From positions 1 to 6,296 of the forward strand of contig CAMTVK010000010.1 of the NCBI GenBank assembly GCA_947085185.1: a stretch of DNA of 6,296 nucleotides, read 5' to 3'. Positions 17 through 6,296 of the stretch are shown here, in pieces. Origin of the DNA: Candidatus Fraserbacteria bacterium (GTDB lineage Bacteria > Bipolaricaulota > Bipolaricaulia > RBG-16-55-9 > DRXL01). Position numbers and translations under genes: made by a program. Every line of letters begins with the position of its first letter. The stretch's first letter is position 1. Below the pieces are notes generated by a model. That model made no database searches, was not told where the DNA came from, and saw only the letters and a list, made by a program, of their open reading frames with translations.

Positions 17-1054
17 ATGGTCAAGTATGCACTCTTATCGTTGGGTGTAGTAGGGCTGCTGGTGCTGGGGGAGGGGCTCGTGCCGCAGCACCCTGGGGCT
101 AGAGGCCAGCAAGAGCGGTTTGTTGTGCGCGTGCCTGAGGACTTTTCTACTATCCAAGCAGCCATTGACGCAGTGGCCGAAGGGGGCACGGTGCTCATCG
201 GGCCAGGCTTATATAAAGAGAGCTTAGTTATCACGAAAAGCCTGCGCCTGATGGGCTCAAGCCGAGAGCAAGTCCGCATCTACAGCATAGATGACCAAAA
301 ACCAGTCGTCTATGCGAGCTCTCGATCTCTCCTGCAGCTCTTTCTCCAAGGGCTCACCATCACGAGAGAACAGCTCCCGAACCCAAACCTTCCTCCTTCT
401 TTCATCCCTCCAGGAACTGGCATCTTCCTTGGGGGTCCCATCCAGGCCACCTTGCGGCAACTCACCGTGACAAACCAGATTGGCGGAGTGGTCGTCTTCC
501 CCTTGATAGAATACAACGAAGAGCTTTTGTACTTCCGATCTCAAGCCGTCCTAGAAGAGGTATTCTTGGCTCACAATGCGGGAGCAGTGGTTGCTCACTC
601 CGCACACGTGATCATCGTGCGCTCCACTATCACTGATAACGAAGCTGGCCTTATGGTGGATAGCGTATATCTCACCCACAGCACGGTGTGCAAGAATCGT
701 TTCTGGGGGATCGAGCTGAGACTGCCGTCGTCGGCGTTTGGCCCTCAGTATATGGGGGCTTTGCAGAGCAACGAGATCTCCGAGAACGGCGTGGGCGTGA
801 TCCTCGGCGTGATGTCCGAGGAGGCAGCGGGGAGCTGGCTGCTGATGAATGAGAACAAGATCTTCCGCAACCAAGAGTATGGGGTTATGATCCTGAAGAG
901 GGCATGTCCCACGTCTTTTCCGGATCCTGAGCTGGCCCTTGGGAGGGAGAGCGCCCTCATCAGGATCTTTGGCGGGAATAATGAGCTGTATGGCAACTTC
1001 AAAGCCGACCTCTGCCCACCCGACCATCCCTGGCCGCCGGGGTTCCGAAAGTAG
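17..1054 (+). CDS. Secreted right-handed parallel beta-helix (pectin lyase-like/NosD-like) repeat protein
   Basis: 345-aa ORF with an N-terminal signal-like segment (MVKYALLSLGVVGLLVLG). It has the typical beta-helix N-cap VRVPEDFSTIQAAIDA...GGTVLIGPGLYKESLVITKSLRLMG. Asn-ladder coils follow (STITDNEAGL, STVCKNRFWGI, NEISENGVGV, NKIFRNQEYGV, NELYGN). The stop is tandem TAG TGA. Confidence 0.8.
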   Translation: MVKYALLSLGVVGLLVLGEGLVPQHPGARGQQERFVVRVPEDFSTIQAAIDAVAEGGTVLIGPGLYKESLVITKSLRLMGSSREQVRIYSIDDQKPVVYASSRSLLQLFLQGLTITREQLPNPNLPPSFIPPGTGIFLGGPIQATLRQLTVTNQIGGVVVFPLIEYNEELLYFRSQAVLEEVFLAHNAGAVVAHSAHVIIVRSTITDNEAGLMVDSVYLTHSTVCKNRFWGIELRLPSSAFGPQYMGALQSNEISENGVGVILGVMSEEAAGSWLLMNENKIFRNQEYGVMILKRACPTSFPDPELALGRESALIRIFGGNNELYGNFKADLCPPDHPWPPGFRK

Positions 1055-2912: not shown

Positions 2913-4055
2913 ATGGCAAGGAAAGCTGTTCTGGCATTGGTCTTCTTGTTCGCCCTCACGGGGATCTTCTCGTACGGACAGCAAGGGCTCAAGCCCAGTG
3001 CTACTCTGACCCTCTCCGGTGATCTTATCGCTTTGGCCTCGTGCGCCGGGGGGAGCGGGCTTGTGGCTGCCAGCAAGTCCGGAGGAAACACCGCTATTCA
3101 GATCATCAACACGTTCTCCAAAGAGCTTGTCAGCAGCGTCAGCGTCGCTGTGGCCAATCCCAGCGCGCTAGCCGTCAATCGCGATTGCAGCGCAGCGTTC
3201 ATCGCCGACGCTTCAGCCAATAGAGTCTTCTTTGTAGCTCTGCCCAATGGGCAAATCCGCGCTGAGATCGCTGTAGGCACCAAGCCCATCGCGCTCGCGC
3301 GCGCGACCCACAACCCCGATCTCTATGTCGTGAACGCCGACGATGGTTCTGTCTCCGTTATTAACACTCAGACAAATACCGTCAAAGCGACGGTCAAAGT
3401 GGGCAACCAGCCCAGCGCCATCGCGCTCTATAGTCTCGGCGCGTACAATCGTGCGTTCGTCACAAACAAGGGCAGCAACACCATCAGCGTCATTGATATT
3501 AACGACGATCCGGCCAACGAGAATCGCTACACAGTGATCGCGACGGTCCAGACGGGTCCACAGCCCAGCGCCATCGCTACGACGGTCGGCTCATGGCTCG
3601 GCGATATGTACGCATACTTCATCAATCAAGGAGACAATACGCTCAGCCGCGTGATGATCACCCCGCCCCATAGTATAGACTCAGCTGTGCCTGCTGGGGG
3701 CAAGCCCGTAGCGGTCTTCTTAGACTCGGTGCGCTTCTGCGCCTATACAGTCAATTCGGGGGATGGGCAGAGCGCGATCTCTGTAGCCGTAGCGCAGTTT
3801 ATCAGCAGCCCCAACCCGACCGTTCCTACGGGCAAGGACCCGTTCCATGCTGTGACGTCGTACTCGGTTAGTGAGCGCTTGGGAGCGGTGGCGCTCTTTG
3901 TGCCGTTGACGATTCAAGAGCGGGTTCCGGGAAATCCAGAGCTCGTGAGCCGTATTCAGAGACAGCTTTGGGCGGCCAACGCTGCCAAGCCCGGTGAGCT
4001 CAATCTCTATATCTTAGACGGGCTATGTCCGCAACTGAGAGGGGACGAGCCGTAA
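2913..4055 (+). CDS. Secreted YVTN/YncE-family beta-propeller repeat protein
   Basis: Signal peptide MARKAVLALVFLFALTGIFSYG, then ~40-aa repeats: VGTKPIALA...LYVVNADDGSVSVINTQTNTVKATVKVGNQPSAIAL...AFVTNKGSNTISVID...TVIATVQTGPQPSAIA...AYFINQGDNTLS. It has a strong RBS. Confidence 0.85.
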   Translation: MARKAVLALVFLFALTGIFSYGQQGLKPSATLTLSGDLIALASCAGGSGLVAASKSGGNTAIQIINTFSKELVSSVSVAVANPSALAVNRDCSAAFIADASANRVFFVALPNGQIRAEIAVGTKPIALARATHNPDLYVVNADDGSVSVINTQTNTVKATVKVGNQPSAIALYSLGAYNRAFVTNKGSNTISVIDINDDPANENRYTVIATVQTGPQPSAIATTVGSWLGDMYAYFINQGDNTLSRVMITPPHSIDSAVPAGGKPVAVFLDSVRFCAYTVNSGDGQSAISVAVAQFISSPNPTVPTGKDPFHAVTSYSVSERLGAVALFVPLTIQERVPGNPELVSRIQRQLWAANAAKPGELNLYILDGLCPQLRGDEP

Positions 4056-4072
4056 GATTGGGAGAGAGCCAG

Positions 4073-4115
4073 AAAGTCAGGGAGAGGGCACGAGCGCCCT
4101 CTCCCTGACTTTTTT
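4073..4115. terminator. Bidirectional intrinsic terminator between convergent genes
   Basis: Perfect 17-bp inverted repeat AAAGTCAGGGAGAGGGC (4073-4089) / GCCCTCTCCCTGACTTT (4096-4112) with a 6-nt loop. The + strand has a T6 tail (4110-4115) and the - strand a TTTCT tail. Confidence 0.9.
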
Positions 4116-4219
4116 CTATGGACATCAGAAGCGCAGGCTCCAGAGAGTGAAGCTCATACTCGGCACTGAGGATGTTTGCTGGTGAGAGACAGGAGGCTTT
4201 GATCGGCTCCATCTATAGC

Positions 4220-4735
4220 TTACCAGATCAAATTGAACCCCAGCGCCGCTCCCAAGCCGGTGCCAATCACCGCGATGCCTATAATTTTATCCTCTTTTAG
4301 GAGCTGGGGCTGACCACAAAGCCAATGGACAGCTATACGGACCCCTGTGGCTCCACCAACATAAGTGAAGATAGCCCGAACGATTCCTTGGATAAGACCA
4401 TCACTCTTTCCCAACATCTCTGATCTCGCTCCATTCCAGACTGCCAGCCCTATAGTGGCGGAGACCGCTAACAGGCGCTGAGTCTCAATTCGCTGTAAGT
4501 TCCTGCACGTATCGATCTCTCGCTTTGAGCGCAGGATTATTGCGAAGAGCTCTGGGAGCCCGTAACCCCCAAATGCTCCAAATGAGCCAAGTAAGATTGA
4601 GCCGGAGACAAAGCCGATTTTATCCACTATATCCGGCTCTTCTTTTGAAGGAACTGCGCGAACTTCAAGAGAGGAAAAGATGATGAGCAGCAAACCTAAC
4701 ACTCCTCCGAGTAGCTTTCTCAAATGCTTAGTCAT
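4220..4735 (-). CDS. Hypothetical exported or membrane protein with Gly-rich hydrophobic helices; candidate immunity protein
   Basis: 171 aa from ATG 4735. Its RBS AGGAGG (4747-4742) overlaps the upstream TAG. It has a signal-like N-terminus (MTKHLRKLLGGVLGLLLIIFSSLEVRA) and about four hydrophobic GxxxG-type segments ending IIGIAVIGTGLGAALGFNLIW. Immunity is inferred from position only. Confidence 0.7.
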   Translation of the reverse strand: MTKHLRKLLGGVLGLLLIIFSSLEVRAVPSKEEPDIVDKIGFVSGSILLGSFGAFGGYGLPELFAIILRSKREIDTCRNLQRIETQRLLAVSATIGLAVWNGARSEMLGKSDGLIQGIVRAIFTYVGGATGVRIAVHWLCGQPQLLKEDKIIGIAVIGTGLGAALGFNLIW

Positions 4736-4745
4736 ATCGCCCCTC

Positions 4746-5499
4746 CTACCCAAGGCATCCAAGAGCAGCGCCAATACAGACCCCCACGGCTACTGCCCAA
4801 GCCCAGCCACAAAGGTCATCATCAGCTGCACACACAAGAGCAGCTGCAGAAGCAGCCGCAGCGCAAATCGCTATAAAACACCAATGCCAAGCAATAAGTG
4901 GACTCGCCTTGAGATTCGCAGTCGGTTCAACTTTTAACTCAGCCAGCTTCTTCCGCAGGTAAGGACTGATGCCACCTTCACGGAGCACGCGCTGGGCAGG
5001 CTCATTCGTGCCGGGTCGAGCCAGATACCCCTCAAGCTGCTGGTATTGATCGGAAGTCAGCACGCCACGGAACTCCTCGCGATAGTACCGCTTCACCGCT
5101 CCAGGATACTCGAACTGCTCCGGCAGTGCCTGCAACTGCGCATCAACCTGAGCTGTAACGCCCTGCGCGTCCAACTCCTCAATCAAGTCCAACATGGTTC
5201 GCTTTGCGTGTTTGAAGCGCTGTTCCAACTCTGCGGAACTGACGTGTTCGATCTTGTTCTGTGCTCGCAGCACTCCCTTCCATGCTTCTTTGGCTTTACG
5301 AGCCAGTTGAGCTAATCTCTTGCGAGCGGCCTCCCCTCCGGTTCCAGCAGGAGCTAACGGAACGCTTGACTCCGAGCGCCATAAGAATTGCGTACACCCA
5401 CTCAATCCACTAACCATGACTAATCCTACACCCAATGCCCAGACCTTGCAACAACACCCGCCGCGAGAGCCGCTTTGTACCAGATCCTTGCATGAACAT
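4746..5499 (-). CDS. Tat-lipoprotein precursor with a C-terminal six-Cys hydrophobic peptide (halocin C8-like architecture); apparent 1-bp frameshift near 5438-5440
   Basis: RBS AAGGAGG (5512-5506) precedes ATG 5499, giving MFMQGSGTKRLSRRVLLQGL, but this frame stops at 5412-5410. Removing one base (e.g. a G of GGG at 5440-5438) joins it to ORF 4746..5435. The result is ...SRRVLLQGLALGVGLVMVSGLSGC (twin-Arg, h-region, lipobox), a charged helical pro-region and a Cys/Ala/Trp-rich tail, 250 aa in total. Confidence 0.75.
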
Positions 5500-5533
5500 A
5501 CTATGCCTCCTTCTTAAGGTTATTATCAAATAA

Positions 5534-5558
5534 AGTGTAGCAAAAAAAAATTTGTCAA
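5534..5558 (-). promoter_or_regulatory. Putative promoter of the two-gene cassette, with a homopolymer in the spacer
   Basis: The minus strand reads TTGACA (5558-5553), AA, T9 (5550-5542), GC, TACACT (5539-5534). This includes an extended -10 (TGcTACACT) in an AT-rich intergenic region. The -35/-10 spacer is only 13 bp. Confidence 0.55.
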
Positions 5559-5579
5559 GTCACTTAAAAAGACTGGCTC

Positions 5580-6296
5580 TTAATCTTGTCTCTTCTTCCG
5601 TCTTGGTGACGGTAGGCTCTGGGTCTCTACCACCGGTTGGTAGGAGGCTATGAGCAAGACCTGCGAGCCCGCAGCTTCCATAGCCGATAGATCAATATAG
5701 TAGCCGAACATCACAGGAACTGCTGGAGCTGGCAGCTGCGGCTGCAAGGCTTGCAGCATCTTTTGAAACTGGCTCACCTCACGTGCATAGACGCGCGATT
5801 TCACTTCGCCCACCACCACGATGTTTCGTCGCCCTTGTTTGCCTTCGGCATAGAGGTCCACATCCACCACTTGGCCATCGAGCTGGAAGAGTCGCCGTTC
5901 TAGGCGTTCGACTGCGATCCTATAGCGATAGCGCAGATACCCTGGCAGCACCAGCCGCGCGATGTCTTCCAAACCGTAGCCGATGTTCTCACTAAGAGCA
6001 CCTACTTGAGTAGCGAGCTGTTGCATCGCCTCGGAGAGTTTCGCCATAGAGGCTTCTAGCACTCCTACGCGCTCTTCGGTGCGCGCTTGGGCCTCGGCGA
6101 GTTTGGTGACGGCGACTTCGAGCTGGCTCACGCGCTCTTCGGTGCGCGCTTGAGCCTCGGCGAGTTTGGTGACGGCGACTTCGAGCTGGCTCACGCGCTC
6201 TTCGGTGCGCGCTTGGGCCTCGGCGAGTTTGGTGACGGCGACTTCGAGCTGGCTCACGCGCTCTTCGGTGCGCGCTTGAGCCTCGGCGAGTTTGGT
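5580..6296 (-). CDS. Coiled-coil tandem-repeat protein with a C-terminal PD-(D/E)XK nuclease-like domain (5' end outside the window)
   Basis: The frame is open to the window edge. Repeats of 21 aa (VSQLEVAVTKLAEAQARTEER) are followed by IGYGLED...VDVDLYAEG...VVVGEVKSR, an E...D...ExK arrangement of restriction-endonuclease-like folds. It ends in a basic tail, RRKKR. Confidence 0.75.
   Translation of the reverse strand, partial: TKLAEAQARTEERVSQLEVAVTKLAEAQARTEERVSQLEVAVTKLAEAQARTEERVSQLEVAVTKLAEAQARTEERVGVLEASMAKLSEAMQQLATQVGALSENIGYGLEDIARLVLPGYLRYRYRIAVERLERRLFQLDGQVVDVDLYAEGKQGRRNIVVVGEVKSRVYAREVSQFQKMLQALQPQLPAPAVPVMFGYYIDLSAMEAAGSQVLLIASYQPVVETQSLPSPRRKKRQD
6067..6296. repeat. 63-bp coding tandem repeat, at least 3.65 copies
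   Basis: Units start at 6067, 6130, 6193 and 6256 (partial). They are identical except for one synonymous site (6090 G, 6153 A, 6216 G, 6279 A). Confidence 0.97.

Follow-up and report, generated by a model that had tools for sequence, protein, structure and literature searches.

Does a compact two-gene unit on one strand of a Fraserbacteria contig encode an exported toxin together with the protein that protects its producer, or does it serve some other role in the cell envelope? The window (the whole 6,296-nucleotide stretch of DNA analysed, from Candidatus Fraserbacteria bacterium contig CAMTVK010000010.1) is the entire contig C10 of a 1.72-Mb, 32-contig genome (57.3% G+C). An initial annotation made from its letters had proposed a toxin–immunity cassette in which gene 1, a lipoprotein precursor exported by the twin-arginine translocation (Tat) pathway, is coupled to gene 2, a membrane protein. 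The unit is best explained as one allele of a fast-evolving two-gene envelope cassette of a single order of Bipolaricaulota/Fraserbacteria. Judged from sequence comparisons, it bears the evolutionary signature of a polymorphic two-gene conflict cassette, and its specific interpretation as a phase-variable, polymorphic lipoprotein toxin with a membrane immunity protein is the foremost candidate, though one that is held tentatively.

The promoter element, strong ribosome-binding sites (RBSs), stop/RBS overlap and downstream hairpin of the proposed minus-strand unit were all found in the window, arranged between 5558 and 4073 in the order TTGACA, gene 1, stop/RBS overlap, gene 2 and a 17-bp hairpin. 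On that strand the start codon of gene 1 (ATG, 5499-5497) lies 6 nt behind the RBS AAGGAGG (5512-5506), and its stop codon (TAG, 4748-4746) overlaps the GGAGG (4746-4742) that serves as RBS ahead of the gene 2 ATG at 4735. A closely related strain sampled in sequencing run X6 departs from the window at this junction: a single contig (depth 3.6) lacks 5 bases at 4744 and carries two changes at 4737-4738, so that all of the differences fall within 4737-4748, where the gene 1 stop meets the gene 2 RBS.

In the window, gene 1 is divided between two minus-strand frames. A 5' fragment in frame A (5410-5499), which reads MFMQGSGTKRLSRRVLLQGLGIG and stops after 29 codons, supplies the Tat n-region with its SRR motif and aligns with the intact N-termini of P0013, L075 and G012. 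The main frame B (5435-4746; 229 codons plus stop) supplies the h-region, passes through VGLVMVSGLSGC with its lipobox (cysteine codon of LSGC at 5394-5396), continues into a charged helical N-domain (4926-5336, frame B residues 34-170), and ends in a linker and six-Cys C-terminal tail (4749-4925). The Tat motif, lipobox, charged helical region and distinct Cys-rich hydrophobic tail attributed to gene 1 at the outset were thereby confirmed across the two frames.

The frames are separated by a 1-nt insertion, an extra T at ~5434-5435 (minus strand) between the twin-arginine motif and the lipobox, as judged by DNA alignment with three intact alleles (L075, L074 and G012), all of which lack it. 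Logan contigs from the probable source run (X1, depth 558) left the window sequence unchanged over 4000-5700, and a contig of depth 241 from a second sample (X2) was likewise unchanged over 5362-5700, the insertion site included; in both cases the evidence takes the form of assembled contigs, and both runs belong to one study. A programmed frameshift at this site was ruled out by the three intact alleles without the extra base and by the lack of a slippery motif. The frameshift is accordingly regarded as real and the window copy of gene 1 as a pseudogene. Because of the insertion, and because the TTG at 5435 that opens frame B has no RBS ahead of it, an exported gene 1 protein is in all likelihood not produced by this organism. 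The initial annotation had treated gene 1 as a repaired protein, and that repair does match the intact alleles; what did not stand is the implied function, since with gene 1 a pseudogene the cassette as a whole would be unable to work here, even though the evolutionary signature of a toxin–immunity cassette is in place. The intact form of the window allele is represented by P0013 and by locus L075, which lies on a 394,918-base metagenome contig, with gene 1 82% identical.

The genome also encodes a second, intact gene 1 paralogue of 270 aa (G000:C3:630-1442, L024). This paralogue is followed by 99-aa and 78-aa membrane open reading frames (ORFs) and preceded by a gene for a Crp-like regulator, the 3' end of which bears a C10 tract both here and in G003 (L020); a similar C10 context occurs at G000:C17:48914.

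A search of 1.84 billion representative proteins with a 13-member profile returned 41 clusters at E <= 0.001, 26 of them at E <= 1e-10, and a scan of 183 other genomes of the phylum located the family in 8 of 26 genomes from two families of one order and in none of the 157 elsewhere. It is thus a rare, unnamed family confined to one order of Bipolaricaulota/Fraserbacteria, and some genomes hold several copies (at four places in G019, three in G025 and two in G000, the genome of the window). Neither gene matched any Pfam, NCBIfam or PADLOC family beyond Tat-signal models, so that no known non-toxin family, which would have spoken against a toxin, was found; all of the cluster members that were looked up are named 'hypothetical protein' in their sources. 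In scans of genome collections the window protein alone matched nothing and a narrower alignment matched two loci, the whole-family alignment being too diverse for such a scan, while viral contigs yielded no relative for two queries. Literature searches on lipo-invert, on Fraserbacteria and on Tat, lipoprotein, bacteriocin, immunity and Cys-rich themes (the latter two by listings) returned no description of such a family.

Intact family proteins are 245-305 aa long, and all members with a complete N-terminus carry an RR motif, a lipobox, a helical domain and a Cys-rich hydrophobic tail. The lipobox Cys, placed after the signal h-region, is invariant in 35 of 35 aligned members, and the Tat-signal model TIGR01409 matched 15 of the 35 at E <= 10, exceeding its cut-off of 16.7 in P0012 (17.8) and in a G022 member (20.4); the Tat and lipobox assignments rest on these matches, on motifs and on intact homologues. 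A Tat-exported lipoprotein in a diderm envelope is plausible because TatC, Lgt, LspA and an Omp85 protein are all encoded in the genome, each above its curated cut-off. The helical N-domain (~140 aa) has a few conserved positions (W, R, N, AK, D..G and GG.S).

Many members of a sister family (P0012, P0015, P0018, P0022, P0023, P0035 and P0043; L021, L023, L025-L027 and L058) begin MCCG[KRQ][ED].Y[ED]E, a stretch that precedes the twin-arginine motif and so gives the Tat signal two adjacent Cys at its very N-terminus. A supposedly recurrent truncation at 'M[AG][AV]GLV' was dropped, as the P0004 locus (L074) proved intact and the start to be a choice of the gene caller.

In the window the tail is a hydrophobic stretch of 42 aa with the pattern WCFIAIC...C...C...C...GC, comprising two hydrophobic helices around an acidic turn, DDD, and six Cys spaced 4-10-6-10-6. 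Family tails are 40-60 aa long, hydrophobic and non-cationic, and each of the two helices has the length and hydrophobicity needed to cross a membrane. In 35 members the core of the tail has a mean length of 50 residues and a composition of 20% Ala and 11% Cys, with between 0 and 3 Lys plus Arg. All but one of the 35 have an even number of Cys (four in 12, six in 18 and eight in 4, the exception having nine), and the spacings are mirror-symmetric about the turn, within 2 residues, in 28 of 35, whereas 1000 shuffles gave 2.0 such members on average and 7 at most. Besides the 4-10-6-10-6 of the window, examples include 7-10-5-10-8, 17-2-8-2-17 and 6-33-7, and C-x10-C is the commonest spacing on both helices (13/18 and 9/18 six-Cys members, one figure per helix). 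Such mirror spacing reads as the signature of an antiparallel helical hairpin with its cysteines in register, within which a ladder of disulfides would be expected to form.

AlphaFold models agree with a hairpin. For frame B of the window (13 sequences in the multiple sequence alignment) the mean predicted local distance difference test score (pLDDT) was 72, with 71-91 per ten-residue block in the N-domain and 64-78 in the tail; for P0013 (35 sequences) the mean was 81, with ~94 in the N-domain, ~86 in the tail and ~55 in the 15-residue linker before it, a low-confidence segment that is the sole hint of a proteolytic release of the tail. In both models a tight turn links the two helices of the tail, the first of which appears to lie within a four-helix bundle with the N-domain. 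Structural matches cover model ranges 27..208 and 49..229; because these four-helix-bundle matches span the first tail helix, the hairpin may be read as packing against two long N-domain helices. Neither model matched the PDB in Foldseek at E <= 0.001. A wide VIA structure search returned generic four-helix bundles only, the best with Z scores of 9.2 and 8.4, a range uninformative for helical bundles, and PDB sequence profiles gave nothing below E = 0.025, Hbl L1 at E = 0.085 being a weak lead.

The two parts of the protein were compared between members. Three pairs with closely related domains carry dissimilar tail cores (P0004/P0006, 82% domain and 29% tail-core identity; P0004/P0009, 76% and 32%; G012/P0006, 73% and 27%), their tails being about as alike as the all-pairs mean of 28%, while two pairs with distant domains show the reverse (window/P0017, 41% and 57%; G019a/P0016, 48% and 63%). 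The domains of P0006, P0007 and P0009 are 68-82% identical to that of P0004, with unrelated tails. In the domain tree four tail types occur among six close sequences that form a clade with full support, and approximately unbiased (AU) tests rejected the uniting of rows of tail type T02 (p 0.0045) and of T03 (p 0.0064), the groups having been named after a first look at the tree and P0019 lying on a long branch. Since domain and tail identities disagree and the AU tests reject a single origin, tails are judged to have been exchanged between domain lineages, with a conserved N-domain and a swappable C-terminal module. The initial annotation had advised looking for a conserved N-terminal part with variable tails; many unrelated tail types, swapped between close domains, are what emerged, and an invariant tail was not encountered among the homologues.

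Several C-termini depart further from the common plan. P0040 (383 aa) keeps only the first hydrophobic helix, followed by GGGGG-C and a domain of Hint/intein type, in which TIGR01443 (intein_Cterm) reaches 21.6 bits with its cut-off at 15.6; this suggests self-cleavage or ligation at the C-terminus. The tails of P0009, P0019, P0023, P0026, P0035 and L023:1465-1746 bear a poly-Gly or acidic extension ending in [LIV][TIE]P at the very C-terminus, an ending that may act as a sorting or processing signal. A further protein type found in or beside some cassettes (L026:115-585, L023:137-679 and a 263-aa ORF of L058) lacks a signal peptide and combines a hydrophobic hairpin rich in Cys with a C-terminus that is rich in Pro and holds additional Cys; in G019:C47 it comes after a 73-aa stump with an MCCG/Tat/lipobox leader. 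The family NF058595 ('invert_tail', a lipo-invert putative C-terminal anchoring domain) was rejected as a relative: its curated cut-off is 37 bits, of which the highest-scoring member, P0026, attained 18.4, and matches below the cut-off were non-specific, occurring in 33/41 related and 10/14 control genomes.

Gene 2 (4735-4220, minus strand) encodes a protein of 171 aa with a cleavable-type signal peptide (…EVRA/VPS) followed by four hydrophobic Gly-rich segments. By sequence it has no relative in 40 related genomes, and among 5.8 billion proteins just one other 90% cluster was found, P0049 (79% identity, BLASTP), which is present on 84 contigs and of which the type adjoins intact gene 1 in L075. 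More generally, in 16 of the 17 loci with downstream DNA the next gene after gene 1 lies on the same strand and encodes a small membrane protein of 99-237 aa with 2-7 hydrophobic segments, an outcome that bears out the co-occurrence anticipated for gene 2, and the partner proteins fall into several groups unconnected by BLAST. Tail type and partner type recur jointly (window with L075; G012 with L074), and gene 2 is best described as encoding a small membrane protein specific to its cassette type. Within the genus the cassette occupies one chromosomal site, beside a convergent beta-propeller gene in every locus and downstream of an M16 peptidase gene where the contig extends that far, the window contig ending earlier.

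Loss of gene 1 is not peculiar to the window. Seven lesions in total have killed gene 1 in four loci, in all four of which the partner is intact: the 1-nt insertion in the window; a frameshifting deletion in the signal, together with a TAG ahead of the tail, in G005; a large deletion, a frameshift and a TGA at the tail start in G004; and a TAA in mid-domain in G025:C31. In G005 (L012:4500-4510) and G004 (L019) the in-frame stop stands at the junction of domain and tail with the tail frame open behind it, which may reflect chance or a selective disadvantage of the tail. Within the 90% cluster of the window-type allele, full-length forms of 249-250 aa are recorded on 9 contigs and 145-148-aa forms with an internal Met as their start on 73, of which some reach 244 kb, and the partner P0049 is intact on 84 contigs, so that the 5' half of gene 1 is probably disrupted in most sampled populations.

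Between the window and L075, the ratio of non-synonymous to synonymous substitution rates (dN/dS) was 0.31 for frame B overall, 0.28 for the gene 1 domain (dS 0.25), 0.50 for the tail (dS 0.33), 0.50 for mature gene 2 (dS 0.21) and 0.12 for the neighbouring beta-propeller gene (dS 0.73). These values indicate that both cassette genes have evolved as coding sequence, under constraint weaker than that on the neighbour. The run X6 strain, the contig of which covers frame B codons 56-229, shows five changes in the domain, all of them synonymous, and ten in the tail, of which 7 are synonymous and 3 non-synonymous; the two that affect Cys codons are silent. Because dS in the cassette (0.22-0.36) is half or less of that in the flanking gene, the cassette is younger than its surroundings at silent sites, which suggests recent exchange between strains. 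In conserved synteny, the cassette is nonetheless by far the more diverged part between genus-mates: gene 1 is 40% identical to that of G012, as compared with 85% for the beta-propeller protein between window and L075.

A further feature, missed by the initial annotation, is that the promoter contains a repeat, and it is this feature that opens the way to a reading as a phase-variable surface lipoprotein. The -35-like TTGACA (5558-5553, minus strand), kept in alleles L075, L074 and G012, is followed by an A2T9 tract (5552-5542), the sole homopolymer of at least 7 in the window, and then, 13 nt after the -35 element, by TACACT (5534-5539), which is assigned as a candidate -10 hexamer and corresponds to TATACT or TATAAT in other alleles. 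Genus promoters generally have a variable-length A/T tract between TTGACA and a TA[CT]ACT or TATAAT hexamer: A2T9 in the window, A4T13 in L075, A5T16 in L074 and A1T9 in G012, while a contig of run X4, from a different study, is identical to the window over 5513-5700 save for four more T (T13). With the -10 hexamers so assigned, the spacers come to 13 nt in the window and to 19, 23, 14 and 17 nt in L075, L074, G012 and the X4 contig, respectively. The pattern 'TTGACA + up to 6 nt + T7 or more' has a single occurrence in the 1.72-Mb genome, namely at the cassette promoter.

A different repeat is found in the sister family, where each paralogue with the MCCG[KR]E.YE.. leader before its Tat motif is preceded by TTGACA, 16-17 nt and (CTTAC)n. 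The tracts number 3, 7 and 10 units in G025, where 3 of 3 in the genome lie upstream of family genes; in G019, with one tract of 11 units and others of at least 5, 3 of 5 precede MCCG-type leaders, one of the remainder standing at a contig end after TTGACA and one being unrelated; and in G034, with 6 units, 1 of 2 lies before a family gene and the other in the same promoter context. The reversed control pattern had 0 occurrences in all five genomes. A promoter repeat (A/T or CTTAC tract) whose length differs between alleles, as characterises contingency loci, is hence present. The full sister-family module, consisting of TTGACA, 16-17 nt, (CTTAC)n of 3 to 11 units and then CGGTGGACTTGA[AC]GT...AGGAGGT, stands before every paralogue (L005, L007, L023, L025, L026, L027, L058, L059 and L061, from G019, G025 and G034), and several sister-family contigs break within the (CTTAC) repeat.

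How might such a cassette work if it does encode a toxin with its immunity protein? The gene 1 protein would fold in the cytoplasm with its hydrophobic hairpin packed on amphipathic N-domain helices, a pre-folded state that would account for the use of Tat rather than the general secretory (Sec) pathway, and would then be exported, lipid-anchored and disulfide-stapled. The hairpin would act on the membrane of a neighbour, either after release or by contact, while the gene 2 protein would protect the producer within the producer's own membrane, and expression would be switched as the A/T tract in the promoter spacer, from -35 to -10, changed length by slippage. The organism of the window would on this account be an immune non-producer, because gene 1 is dead through its 1-nt insertion, the spacer measures 13 nt and gene 2 is intact.

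Known systems offer partial parallels. The halocin C8 peptide (HalC8) of haloarchaea, with which gene 1 had been compared at the outset, is Cys-rich and hydrophobic; its precursor ProC8 joins it to the immunity domain HalI. In a recent preprint, the precursor is a Tat-exported protein of 283 aa (UniProt P83716) that is split, by a cleavage mechanism described as unknown, into an N-terminal immunity protein and a 76-aa C-terminal peptide; the mode of action is said not to be fully elucidated, and the precursor is defined by TIGR04449 and PF22862 (10.64898/2026.07.27.741052). The architecture is strikingly parallel, with Tat targeting, an N-terminal domain (helical here) and a Cys-rich hydrophobic C-terminal tail (40-60 aa here), and a protein-language-model (Atlas feature) search placed the halocin C8 cluster at rank 5 with a score of 0.77, a lead only. 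The two profiles did not extend the likeness to membership: TIGR04449 (halocin_C8_dom) matched 0 of 40 members at E <= 0.05, PF22862 (HalC8_like_N) gave no match at E <= 0.1 for 11 proteins, and neither appears in the lists of 25 families obtained with 35 members at E <= 10. Unlike halocin C8, the present family has a lipobox and a separate downstream membrane-protein gene, and the window is without ABC-transporter or regulator genes of the halC8 type. The family is thus not a halocin C8 member by these hidden Markov model tests, but by analogy may work alike.

In the SitA/SitI system of myxobacteria the immunity gene lies directly downstream of the toxin gene, the SitA C-termini are recognisable enzymes acting inside the cell, and delivery needs TraAB. 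The SitA toxins bear a lipoprotein signal and end in a modular, variable part, and a genome may hold several of them (PMC5562445, PMC8546572); all three traits recur in the present family. The variable part here is instead a short hydrophobic Cys hairpin with putative disulfides, on a protein targeted to Tat and paired with a membrane protein; no sequence relation to SitA/SitI was found. Pore-forming colicins have small inner-membrane immunity proteins, and ClyA/Hbl-type toxins are alpha-pore-formers; a helical bundle that in the models appears to shield a hydrophobic helical hairpin, together with a small polytopic membrane partner, recalls both, whereas no fold or sequence match was found and the present proteins are much smaller, lipid-anchored and apparently Cys-stapled. 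The hairpin itself resembles the twin-CX9C (CHCH) hairpins and plant alpha-hairpinins, in which two antiparallel helices likewise hold cysteines in register (C-x10-C being the commonest spacing here, with disulfides presumed), but differs in that its helices are strongly hydrophobic and of membrane-spanning length, and in being bacterial and appended to a lipoprotein.

Several results weigh against a toxin with its immunity protein. No toxin or immunity family, fold or motif was recognised in the Pfam, NCBIfam, PADLOC and PDB/structure searches, and no cleavage site, protease or transporter accompanies the cassette genes. With dN/dS below 1 everywhere, diversifying selection is without support. 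The second tandem copy in G019 is one locus without a partner of at least 60 aa, and the correlation between partner and tail identities is carried by two close pairs and is inseparable from domain identity. The internal-Met forms are classed as broken genes from their ORF starts rather than from their DNA, and the homopolymer lengths, which derive from short-read assemblies, may be off. Repeat-driven promoters and frequent loss of the exported protein would, moreover, fit a variable surface protein equally well.

That last point leads to the alternative that survives best, a possible though somewhat unlikely one, in which gene 1 encodes a phase-variable surface lipoprotein with a membrane partner and no toxin is involved. 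Exposed to selection by phages or predators, or engaged in adhesion or kin recognition, such a protein would use the hairpin as a second membrane anchor or as a contact for gene 2, and would be switched off by repeat slippage and gene loss. The A/T tracts of variable length between -35 and -10 in five alleles of the genus are what this would predict, as are the (CTTAC)n tracts upstream of family genes in G025, G019 and G034 with their empty reversed control, the multi-copy paralogues, the frequent inactivation of the exported protein, the membrane-spanning length and hydrophobicity of both tail helices, and a signal-peptide end far more conserved than the mature protein (mean pairwise identity 55% versus 24%). 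Mycoplasma Vlp proteins have poly-A in the promoter spacer and Neisseria Opa proteins have pentanucleotide repeats; a variable homopolymer between -35 and -10, pentanucleotide repeats upstream of sister-family paralogues, a signal that is conserved ahead of a variable mature protein and the presence of multiple copies are the corresponding features here. The differences are a linked membrane-protein gene, recombined tails, a phylum that is an environmental candidate, and, in the window protein, no internal tandem repeats, a lack that itself counts against a variable surface lipoprotein. Tail swaps on conserved domains and a cassette-specific membrane partner that outlives gene 1 are not known to be typical of such proteins, and were the hairpin to span the membrane, the Cys pairs flanking the turn would presumably face the reducing side.

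The toxin with membrane immunity can also be stated in a far more specific form, which must be considered unlikely: a new class of weapon in which a Tat-exported, lipid-anchored protein would carry a disulfide-laddered hairpin as its toxic head, chaperoned by the N-domain, as a bacterial counterpart and perhaps very distant relative of halocin C8. Delivery would be by contact or lipoprotein exchange between diderm cells, immunity would reside in a cassette-specific membrane protein, promoter repeats would switch production, and immune non-producers would dominate natural populations.

A plain housekeeping envelope pair, in which a hairpin-held lipoprotein and a small membrane protein share a structural or transport role and diversity reflects weak constraint, is improbable: a fixed chromosomal position in the genus, dN/dS below 1 in all parts and the failure to recognise any conflict-system family would all suit it, yet it sits poorly with a family found in 8 of 26 genomes of its two families and in none of the other 157 of the phylum, with the four dead copies of gene 1, with recombined tails, with repeat tracts in promoters and with a cassette dS lower than that of the flanking gene. 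Least probable by a wide distance is a cofactor-binding redox or metal protein, exported by Tat with a cytoplasm-loaded metal centre on its paired Cys and with gene 2 as anchor or electron partner, for although a Tat signal and paired in-register Cys on two helices are present, and hydrogenases and formate dehydrogenases include Tat substrates anchored at the C-terminus, the tails differ in their number of Cys (4, 6, 8) within hypervariable surroundings, the N-domain has 0.2% Cys and no conserved His or Cys, no redox family was matched, pseudogenes are common and no maturation genes lie nearby.

The family is without a name in Pfam, NCBIfam, PADLOC and the source databases, and its mirror-spaced Cys hairpin offers a structural motif simple and predictable enough to look for elsewhere. 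To our knowledge the Bipolaricaulota/Fraserbacteria lineage is known from metagenome-assembled genomes only. Were the cassette indeed to encode a toxin and its immunity protein, it would represent a new design of membrane-active toxin, a first handle on microbial conflict and phase variation in this lineage, and a laboratory-testable bacterial parallel to the poorly understood halocin C8 system; were gene 1 instead to encode a surface lipoprotein, the finding would keep its novelty, as one of surface lipoproteins switched by repeats in an environmental candidate phylum.

Downstream of gene 2, the perfect 17-bp hairpin (4112-4073, both strands) lies between that gene and the convergent beta-propeller gene (2913-4055) and is a probable two-way terminator. 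The 164-nt intergenic fold that holds it has z = -3.9, with a T-run that is strong on the plus strand and merely TTTCT on the minus strand. A consensus scanner called neither this hairpin, owing to the short T-run on the minus strand, nor the TTGACA promoter, which has no -10 hexamer at 16-18 nt; what it did call in the window did not exceed chance, with a single promoter-like site where 0.9 would be expected and a single terminator-like site where 1.8 would be.

Beyond the cassette, the window holds genes rated as ordinary, encoding a beta-helix protein, YicC, guanylate kinase, the beta-propeller protein and a coiled-coil protein, together with a tRNA-Gln (CTG) at 1077-1150 on the minus strand, between the beta-helix gene and yicC. 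The coiled-coil gene (5580-6296) stands at the contig end, and its product yielded coiled-coil noise only in Pfam and PADLOC. A homologue of this protein in G005 (L012:5383-6062) sits downstream of the cassette, as opposed to upstream in the window, where the gene contains 63-nt tandem repeats (3.7 copies, 98% matches) that run off the end of the contig.

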